From the UHGV virus genome UHGV-0144129: DNA of 39,244 nucleotides; one strand, 5' to 3'. The translations under genes and the position numbers were made by a program. Position 1 is the first letter of the stretch, and each line of letters starts with the position of its first letter. The notes beneath the pieces are model-generated. The model had not been told where the DNA came from and ran no database searches. It saw only the letters and a list, made by a program, of their open reading frames with translations. The DNA is from a virus. Of the stretch, positions 31,223 through 31,797 are shown piece by piece.

Positions 31223-31266
31223 GGCGGTGATAGTTTCCCTTGAAGGACTATCACCGCCCTTTTTAC
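31223..31266 (+). terminator. rho-independent terminator downstream of the tRNA
   Basis: ggcggtgatagt ... actatcaccgcc 12-bp stem followed by cttttt. Confidence 0.6.
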
Positions 31267-31342
31267 AGCAGGACGCCATTGCGATGACTTCATGCTGTAA
31301 ACCAGTACAGCCACGGAAGGCATAACTCATTGCTTCCAGTTC

Positions 31343-31366
31343 GCCCGGTTCGCCGGGCATTTTTTT
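31343..31366 (+). terminator. second rho-independent terminator, 12 nt before the next ATG
   Basis: gcccgg-ttcg-ccgggc hairpin followed by T7, then aaggtgagatcATG. Confidence 0.55.
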
Positions 31367-31377
31367 AAGGTGAGATC

Positions 31378-31797
31378 ATGAAGACAATTGATATGTTGGC
31401 TAAGTATCTAAATGAATGGCCATTAAAATATTCTCGTATCGTTCAGGCTGAAGACTGCATTTTTTATGGCGTTCTTGCTGGTAATGAAATGCATTACGAA
31501 GTAATTCAGAGTGAGGGACTGGCTGGGTTAACTCTTAGCGAAGACCATGGTACTAGCGTTACGTTCCATGACTGGATAACAGCACAACGTTCTGAAATGG
31601 AAAAAGGCGATGTTTTTGATATTTCTCGCGCTGTTTACGCTAAAGCAAAAAGTGATAATGATTACATGAGCGAACACTTATACAACATGAAGTTGCAATG
31701 CCTGCATGCGGCGCTTATTCAGAATGGGCACTTCGATAAAACAAGTGCCATCAATATTGCGGAAGCCATCAACGCTGGATTTAATGCCATTAAGTAA
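31378..31797 (+). CDS. hypothetical moron protein downstream of the tRNA
   Basis: 139 aa ORF, SD AAGGTGAG, opposite strand to the flanking late genes. No motif recognised. Confidence 0.5.
   Translation: MKTIDMLAKYLNEWPLKYSRIVQAEDCIFYGVLAGNEMHYEVIQSEGLAGLTLSEDHGTSVTFHDWITAQRSEMEKGDVFDISRAVYAKAKSDNDYMSEHLYNMKLQCLHAALIQNGHFDKTSAINIAEAINAGFNAIK

Follow-up and report, generated by a model that had tools for sequence, protein, structure and literature searches.

A fixed terminator and start-codon junction for exchangeable genes behind a structured RNA and a tRNA-Arg gene in a Uetakevirus-type prophage

The window analysed here is the whole 39,244-nucleotide stretch of the virus genome UHGV-0144129 which, judged by its open reading frame (ORF) map and by its BLAST and PHROG matches, is a phiV10/epsilon15-like (Uetakevirus) temperate podophage present as a prophage. 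The large terminase gene and a 68-aa gene are 1.2 kb apart, and in this gap lies an island on the + strand, opposite to the late genes and running head-on, with the large terminase gene on one side and the portal operon on the other. In this island a structured RNA, a tRNA-Arg gene and two terminators (T1 and T2) precede an ORF of 139 aa, and the junction made of T2, the Shine-Dalgarno sequence and the ATG is a genus-wide fixed docking site for exchangeable genes, called cargo in what follows. The anatomy of the island, the conservation and covariation of its parts, the operator family, the exchange of cargo and the reality of the ORF were observed directly. As to how the unit works, the reading that we prefer, belief and doubt having about equal weight, is that of a promoterless and swappable cargo behind a repressor-controlled RNA/tRNA unit, which would be off in the lysogen and would reach its cargo by read-through after derepression, the default being partial (leaky) termination.

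The U-run of T2 ends at 31366 and is followed by 11 nt (AAGGTGAGATC, which includes the Shine-Dalgarno sequence) and by the ATG at 31378, a distance that a preliminary description of this DNA had put, essentially rightly, at 12 nt. Across T1, T2 and the Shine-Dalgarno sequence, as far as the start codon, phage phiV10 and the window share about 98% identity, which resumes from the stop codon. The phiV10 cargo differs, being an Sf6 gp66-like gene of the PF13876 family (Phage_gp49_66). The junction GCCCnnUUCGnnGGGC-AU7-AAGGUGA-N3-5-AUG is kept in loci of E. coli, Salmonella, Klebsiella, Enterobacter, Leclercia, Citrobacter and others. An exact-motif scan of viral contigs (at least 120 loci), pooled with other loci, yielded 130 junctions; in 124 an ORF start is found 5-30 nt, mostly 11-12 nt, past the U-run, and the ORFs of these 124 junctions fall into 15 protein clusters and so into at least 15 unrelated cargo families. 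Among those junctions 100 have the RNA core no more than 900 nt upstream and 61 have a tRNA. The cargo type of the window is the second commonest (23 junctions) and occupies the same slot in all three prophage loci examined.

The cargo families include a Tad2-like protein (PF11195, 173 aa, in a Klebsiella phage), Phage_gp49_66 and an HNH endonuclease. By eye only, a 98-aa cargo found at three IMG/VR junctions (L066 for example) has the motif ARAGWNGKGM in common with the Tad2-like cargo. A hypervariable slot at a fixed genome position, with a Tad2-like gene in the Klebsiella phage, is what the island has in common with anti-defence hot spots; it differs from these in that the 139-aa cargo of the window showed no detectable relation to the known anti-defence proteins with which it was compared.

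That the 139-aa ORF is a real gene follows from a ratio of non-synonymous to synonymous substitution rates (Ka/Ks) of 0.18-0.43 against four homologues and from a confident AlphaFold2 model, which reached a predicted local distance difference test (pLDDT) value of 83.5 with a deeper alignment. Its GC content is 0.40 versus 0.52-0.54 in the flanks, and its family comprises 28 clusters at 50% identity among 1.84 billion proteins, all from Enterobacterales. The preliminary description had seen no recognisable motif in this product, and indeed there was no Pfam match, only a family of unknown function among the PHROGs, and no informative fold match, so that profile and structure searches of the protein returned no functional match. 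A C-terminal helical hairpin of about 50 aa is common to this ORF and to cargo types with other N-terminal domains. This module (KSDxDY...LYNMKLQCLHAALIQ...AEAINAGFDAIK) lies at 31642-31794 of the window (residues 89-139), at 2461-2832 of the Tyrion locus L009 and in L024; it also exists in stand-alone versions of 61-65 aa, and variants of 201-204 aa have one more domain at the C-terminus, a pattern suggestive of domain shuffling inside the cargo slot.

The two strong terminators reported in the preliminary description stand, each being a hairpin followed by a U-tract. The T1 hairpin has a predicted energy of -23.1 kcal/mol (z = -5.8) and runs into a C-UUUUU tract at 31259-31264, and the T2 hairpin consists of six G-C pairs (-12.7 kcal/mol). 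Under a stricter definition nine strong terminator-like sites were counted in the window, compared with 0.3 after dinucleotide shuffling. Five of the nine are on the + strand, and three of these are T1, T2 and a third hairpin behind the cargo (T3, 31818-31837). Moreover the stems covary. That of T1 reads GAUAG/CUAUC, GGCAG/CUGAC or ACCAG/CUGGU in relatives, while that of T2, kept in every Uetakevirus-type locus compared, is GCCCGG/CCGGGC in the window and in some relatives and GCCCAC/GTGGGC in others, with two compensatory pair changes in the Salmonella group. Since strong sites exceed the shuffles and the stems show compensatory changes, T1 and T2 are not chance features. With their GC-rich hairpins, U-tracts and selected structure both are, by sequence, intrinsic (Rho-independent) terminators and are predicted to terminate transcription.

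The same description had the gene gated by the two terminators, but these are not built around this gene in particular: T2 precedes unrelated ORFs, and T1 is part of an RNA family that is also found in lambdoid phages with neither the tRNA nor the ORF. The T1 motif UUGGCGGU...ACCGCC-CUUUUUACA is present in 24 of 36 distinct RNA copies, the lambdoid tRNA-less ones included. A role of T1 as the terminator of the tRNA was ruled out, as T1 persists in relatives without a tRNA. Conserved as it is with the RNA family, also where the tRNA is missing, T1 belongs to that family and not to the tRNA or the ORF in particular.

Between T1 and T2 lies a hairpin-rich tail of about 100 nt. In the first of its two predicted hairpins (31262-31301) UUUACAGCA pairs with UGCUGUAAA, and in the second (31315-31337) GGAAG pairs with CUUCC; CUGUAAA pairs with the T1 tail UUUACAG. 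The CTGT-N8-ACAG element that had been pointed out at 31295-31310 is present and is contained in the first hairpin. Its reading as a LexA box was rejected: 12 of 20 positions match TACTGTATATATATACAGTA, and relatives from Salmonella and Enterobacter lack the right arm. The inter-terminator sequence is conserved genus-wide; PAS61 lacks 33 nt of it (about 31311-31343) and retains the gene. Rfam 15 gave no family in the T1-T2 interval, the RyhB- and DicF-like matches being chance-level terminator matches (E>1). The T1 tail (CGCUCUUUUUACAA in the lambdoid mEp460, L005 2915-2932; CGCCCUUUUUACAG at 31254-31268 of the window) presumably resembles boxA, whose consensus is YGCUCUUUAACAA and whose key U is a C in the window; we take this as an unverified lead to a connection with Nus factors.

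From T1 to the ATG a sigma-70 scan found no notable promoter, the best site scoring 5.8 bits, which 1112 sites of the window equal. The preliminary description was thus right to see no promoter between T2 and the gene and, with no promoter of its own and 11 nt behind T2, the ORF would be reachable only past T1 and T2, as that description had also proposed. The candidate promoter of the island lies further upstream (Table 1). It is among the top 8 of 392,090 scored sites of the window, and its TTGACA and spacing are kept in all eight Uetakevirus-type relatives aligned; one Klebsiella phage has TTGACC.

The palindrome that covers this promoter belongs to a family of which the window has 12 sites where 1.3 would be expected. 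The homologue of this site in epsilon15 carries the annotation 'repressor, lysogeny', and in both epsilon15 and phiV10 clusters of the palindrome lie on both sides of the repressor gene. Because the palindrome is enriched, its epsilon15 counterpart is annotated as a repressor site and the repressor gene is flanked by it in two relatives, we read 30765-30781 as a predicted operator of the phage repressor. As this operator covers the 30744 promoter, the island would be expected to be repressed in the lysogen and expressed after derepression. Palindromes of the form ATTACC-N5-GGTAAT were recorded at 10157, 11277, 11370, 12386, 12487, 30765, 33955, 33973, 35977, 38294 and 38356, and next to several of them, ahead of - strand operons (tailspike, portal and a resolvase-like gene), stands a conserved AACCACATA(T/A)G motif. 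This arrangement suggests that the repressor directly controls many promoters, late ones included.

On our preferred reading transcription would most likely start at TTGACA-17-TACCTT (30744-30772), about 630 nt upstream of the ORF. With the repressor on the 17-bp operator the unit would be silent in the lysogen, and inactivation of the repressor would turn it on. Its main products would be non-coding, namely an undescribed structured RNA and the tRNA-Arg(UCU) embedded in its helix. T1 would act as the conserved terminator of the RNA family itself and T2 would end the hairpin-rich tail, leaving the 139-aa ORF to be transcribed only by polymerases that escape both; past T2, the U-rich leader and the strong Shine-Dalgarno sequence would allow good translation. 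Since the promoter is covered by the operator and T1 and T2 lie in the path, one would expect no expression in the lysogen and expression limited by read-through after derepression. Moreover, read-through of T2 need not depend on the RNA core, because epsilon15 lacks the core and T1 and still has T2 and an intact cargo.

Several points weigh against this reading. The start site, the repression, termination at T1 and T2 with its efficiency, and read-through as the route of expression are all deduced from the DNA, and the paper on phage ZX5 contains neither transcript nor operator data. Two strong terminators in series would leave little read-through, a poor fit to the Tad2-like protein in the slot of the Klebsiella phage, as sponge proteins of this kind are needed in quantity. 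A similar arrangement of operator plus AACCACATATG precedes two other - strand operons, and the operator together with the highly conserved stretch 30700-30740 may serve a - strand promoter of the portal operon, instead or also. In addition, TL-2011b, EC.W1-9 and SPN1S have 50-110 nt between T2 and the ORF, which is room for an own promoter, and a sigma-70 scan would miss a promoter of unconventional type, such as one dependent on a phage activator.

It is improbable, in our estimate, that the ORF has such an unrecognised promoter of its own (phage-activator-dependent or non-sigma-70), with T1 and T2 insulating the ORF and shielding the terminase genes from antisense transcription. It is true that T1, T2 and T3 form a series of + strand terminators pointing at the convergent terminase genes, just upstream of which the phage has a gene for a predicted transcriptional regulator, and that a GC content of 0.40 is typical of independently acquired genes. 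Against this stand the 11 nt from the U-run to the ATG, the unremarkable best sigma-70-like site from T1 to the ATG, and PAS61, which keeps the gene without 33 nt of the T1-T2 spacer. As the junction is common to 15 unrelated cargo families, an own promoter would moreover belong to the scaffold and not to the gene.

The name moron, which the preliminary description had given to the gene, is apt in part. It is an extra gene of GC 0.40 between flanks about 98% identical to phiV10; no promoter of its own was found directly upstream. With morons in the HK97/HK022 sense it has in common that the gene is present, absent or different between near-identical genomes, the low GC and a terminator directly after it. 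It differs in having no promoter of its own, in a nearest promoter that is covered by an operator, and in a fixed docking site used by at least 15 families. Classical morons carry their own promoter and terminator and are expressed from the prophage, and the predicted operator over the upstream promoter argues against expression of the cargo from a repressed prophage.

The structured RNA of the island measures at least 245 nt (30860-31104 in the window; also L005 2499-2925 and L018 2490-2680), and the approximately 245 nt before the tRNA are nearly invariant among the E. coli relatives. For 22 diverse cores RNAalifold gave 28 pairs, 10 of them with compensatory changes, and a covariance model (R1) scores 146 bits in the window with one copy per genome. 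GCACAU in the first loop is complementary to AUGUGC in GGAAUGUGCAAG and both segments are invariant, which suggests a pseudoknot. The long closing helix covaries between loci (GAUGAGAGCA/UGCUCUCAGC, AGAUAAGAGCA/UGCUCUUAUC and GGAGAGAGUA/UACUCUCUUC). In tRNA-less relatives the helix GUUGUGG(UGA)...(UCA)CCACAAC encloses a variable insert, whose place is taken in the window by the tRNA-Arg. With Rfam 15, at gathering scores and at E<=5, only tRNA matches were obtained over the island, which leaves the RNA without a family, and a literal literature search with its invariant motifs returned nothing relevant. The preprint on the Pas small RNA proved to concern an unrelated RNA.

A service of the tRNA to the cargo was ruled out, as the 139-aa ORF uses neither AGA nor AGG. 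AGA codons, which amount to 7.1 per 1000 in the 12 genes counted, are concentrated in the tailspike and large internal-virion genes (7402-10053 and 15725-24969; 5-14 per gene), and none is present in the terminase, portal, major capsid or cargo genes. Non-coding RNA co-transcribed with phage tRNAs is known from the tRNA cluster of phage T4, with its stable RNAs C and D of unknown function. The island RNA would resemble these in being co-transcribed with a tRNA and presumably freed by tRNA-processing enzymes; unlike them it also occurs without a tRNA, and there is no sequence relation.

The RNA is widespread. Its invariant 19-mer GGTAGCCGGAATGTGCAAG was found at 24 loci of one-genome-per-species contigs, 22 of them from named Enterobacterales species, and by BLAST the core is present in 1840 of 5426 complete E. 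coli genomes (554 places being on plasmids) and in cdtI and Stx2c phages. In E. coli strain 2/0 (CP023853) the match to the core is 100%. All core-bearing plasmids in the sampled rows measure 90-105 kb. The single one examined is of the P1 type, and on P1-like plasmids the RNA begins 4 nt behind a tRNA-Ile and precedes ban, with no terminator behind the core. In the lambdoid mEp460, an Stx2k phage and an E. coli O26 prophage the cI terminator, two OL-like operators and a PL-like promoter immediately precede the RNA, and in mEp460 the RNA and T1 precede a 5.7-kb early-left operon with no annotated N gene. The lambdoid copies continue through a 10-bp helix GUUGUGGUGA...UCACCACAAC, end in the T1 motif UUGGCGGU...ACCGC-UCUUUUUACA and are followed by a second long hairpin with a U-tract. 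Where other copies have an insert enclosed by this 10-bp helix, the window has the tRNA. If the promoter abuts the first hairpin, as it does at several loci, the transcript begins with the RNA itself; in the window about 80-90 nt separate the 30744 promoter from the core, behind which come T1 and T2. In epsilon15 (L004 1500-1990, compared with SPN1S, L008) the core, the insert and the 5' arm of T1 have been lost by a deletion between two 13-nt TTCCCTTGATGCT repeats, of which one belongs to the core and the other to the T1 loop; both T2 and the cargo ORF are intact.

The preliminary description had taken the gene to be probably controlled by antitermination or attenuation, where we would say possibly. 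The distribution of the RNA opens a tentative alternative, to which we give clearly less credit than doubt, namely that the structured RNA acts in cis on the polymerase in a put-like manner, so that T1, T2 and later terminators would be read through once the repressor is gone. Downstream of PL in mEp460 and other lambdoids expression of the operon demands that polymerases pass T1, the RNA family includes T1 as an integral and covarying part, the RNA is the 5' end of the transcript at loci where the promoter adjoins its first hairpin, and the invariant complementary segments of the core are consistent with a pseudoknot. Moreover the double-hairpin design is common to two phage groups, and a Tad2-like anti-defence cargo argues for substantial expression. 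Other observations speak against it: epsilon15 without the core keeps T2 and cargo, P1-like plasmids have no terminator behind the core, and a processive polymerase would also pass T3 and produce antisense transcripts of the terminase genes.

The comparison with HK022 bears on the same question. A structured RNA right after a repressor-controlled early promoter and before terminators and promoterless genes, with no N in the lambdoids, is the likeness to putL and putR. The put RNAs are about 70 nt long with two stem-loops, and HK022 has both putL and putR (PMC9378689). The island RNA has at least 245 nt, at least four helices and variable inserts, it is present in a single copy per genome with none at PR of mEp460, where the covariance model found no second copy, and antitermination by it would be analogous to put in position. 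Neither sequence nor structure homology to put was found: in HK022 model R1 gave no match down to E=10 except one chance-level 31-nt hit. With respect to lambda, the RNA and T1 of the lambdoid relatives occupy the position of nutL-N-tL1 downstream of PL, and these relatives differ from it in having no annotated N-like gene.

It is possible, though we would not favour it, that the RNA represents a new class of cis-acting regulatory RNA, either a processive antiterminator or a switch with a built-in T1, which replaces N/nut or put. If that were true, it would head the early operons of N-less lambdoids, Uetakevirus and P1-like plasmids and be present in about one third of complete E. coli genomes, and in Uetakevirus it would license a swappable counter-defence slot as the repressor lifts. 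Control by the RNA of read-through at its own terminator would explain how early operons are expressed without N and would be a third RNA-based antitermination beside put and EAR.

Quite unlikely, to our mind, is an attenuator or riboswitch-like switch upstream of T1 that responds to a ligand, a protein or tRNA processing. Its candidate is AUCACGCC (31182-31189), which pairs with the T1 5' arm GGCGGUGAU instead of CGUGAU (31197-31202); the 5' strand of the 31182-31202 hairpin could thus pair alternatively with T1. This segment is a near-repeat of the T1 3' arm AUCACCGCC and is conserved in Uetakevirus directly after the tRNA or insert, and conservation over the whole stretch between the tRNA and T2 exceeds what a neutral spacer would show. 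The lambdoid copies, however, lack the AUCACG hairpin and yet have T1, the minimum-free-energy fold favours the terminator form, and none of the matches suggested a ligand or sensor. A leader-peptide mechanism is unlikely because the 13-codon ORF at 31285 is not kept in frame in the relatives, where both its frame and its length change.

The order of promoter, non-coding RNA, terminator and promoterless ORF is also that of type III toxin-antitoxin modules such as ToxIN, in which an antitoxin RNA and a ratio-setting terminator precede the toxin gene. That the island is such a module we regard as very improbable. Unlike that of ToxIN, the RNA region is free of tandem repeats, and the ORF behind it varies and shows no relation to known toxins. 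At least 15 ORF families that are unrelated to one another follow the RNA, among which are an anti-defence gene and a homing-type HNH endonuclease; at PL of the lambdoids and upstream of ban in P1-like plasmids the RNA occurs with no such ORF.

Table 1. Positions in the window of the island's features and of the neighbouring late genes
Feature	Position	Strand	Details
Portal gene	28775-30454	-	late gene
68-aa gene	30469-30675	-	late gene
Candidate sigma-70 promoter of the island	30744-30772	+	TTGACA-17 nt-TACCTT; weight-matrix scan, 11.3 bits
Predicted operator palindrome	30765-30781	.	ATTACC-N5-GGTAAG, ATTACCTTTCAGGTAAG; 17 bp, covers the promoter -10 and start region
Structured RNA core	30860-31034	+	four helices; possible GCACAU/AUGUGC pairing of loop and single strand
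Long closing helix	31033-31047 with 31090-31104	+	encloses the variable insert; 3' end overlaps the tRNA 5' end by 2 nt
tRNA-Arg	31103-31179	+	anticodon UCU, encoded CCA; ARAGORN, Rfam 73 bits
Hairpin AUCACG...CGUGAU	31182-31202	+	between tRNA and T1; conserved across the genus
T1, terminator	31223-31266	+	14-bp hairpin (31223-31258), then CUUUUUACA
Two inter-terminator hairpins	31262-31337	+	fold prediction
T2, terminator	31343-31366	+	GCCCGG-UUCG-CCGGGC (31343-31358), then A and U7 (31360-31366)
Shine-Dalgarno sequence (AAGGTGA) and start codon	31367-31380	+	conserved; upstream border of the exchangeable cargo
Cargo ORF, 139 aa	31378-31797	+	phrog_4846 (unknown function); ORF map
T3, bidirectional-looking hairpin	31818-31845	both	ends the cargo (+) and the large terminase gene (-)
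Large terminase gene	31888-33363	-	late gene
Small terminase gene	33360-34034	-	late gene

In phiV10 the T3 hairpin is annotated as a - strand terminator. In the Leclercia prophage locus L016 no large terminase gene was called in the stretch 4421-6946, from the cargo ORF to the small terminase gene, and the terminase gene may be disrupted or interrupted there. Elsewhere in the window, 11422-11607 and 14269-14336 gave Rfam matches to isrK, C4 antisense RNA and sar RNA, and three Ant-like genes lie near them (11657-12313, 13323-14267 and a fragment at 10174-10506); the region resembles an immI-like region of secondary immunity. In the antirepressor region a small ORF has a near-perfect LexA box (TACTGTATAAATATACAGTT, 10210-10229) upstream of it, which would fit the LexA-controlled antirepressor switch that the related phage SPC32H is said to have. 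The stretch 2088-4877, placed between the early-left genes and the lysis cassette, contains a transposase-fragment match (ORF 3618-4013) and weak matches of unknown function and may be an insertion or a remnant inside the prophage.

The genus to which the prophage belongs keeps a fixed socket, made of a terminator, a Shine-Dalgarno sequence and an ATG, for the exchange of unrelated accessory genes. Since at least one cargo of this slot is of a known anti-defence family, the 139-aa protein and its slot neighbours are reasonable counter-defence candidates. The socket lies behind a widespread, covarying structured RNA without an Rfam family, which is found at PL in the N-less lambdoids examined and beside tRNAs in P1-like plasmids and in Uetakevirus.

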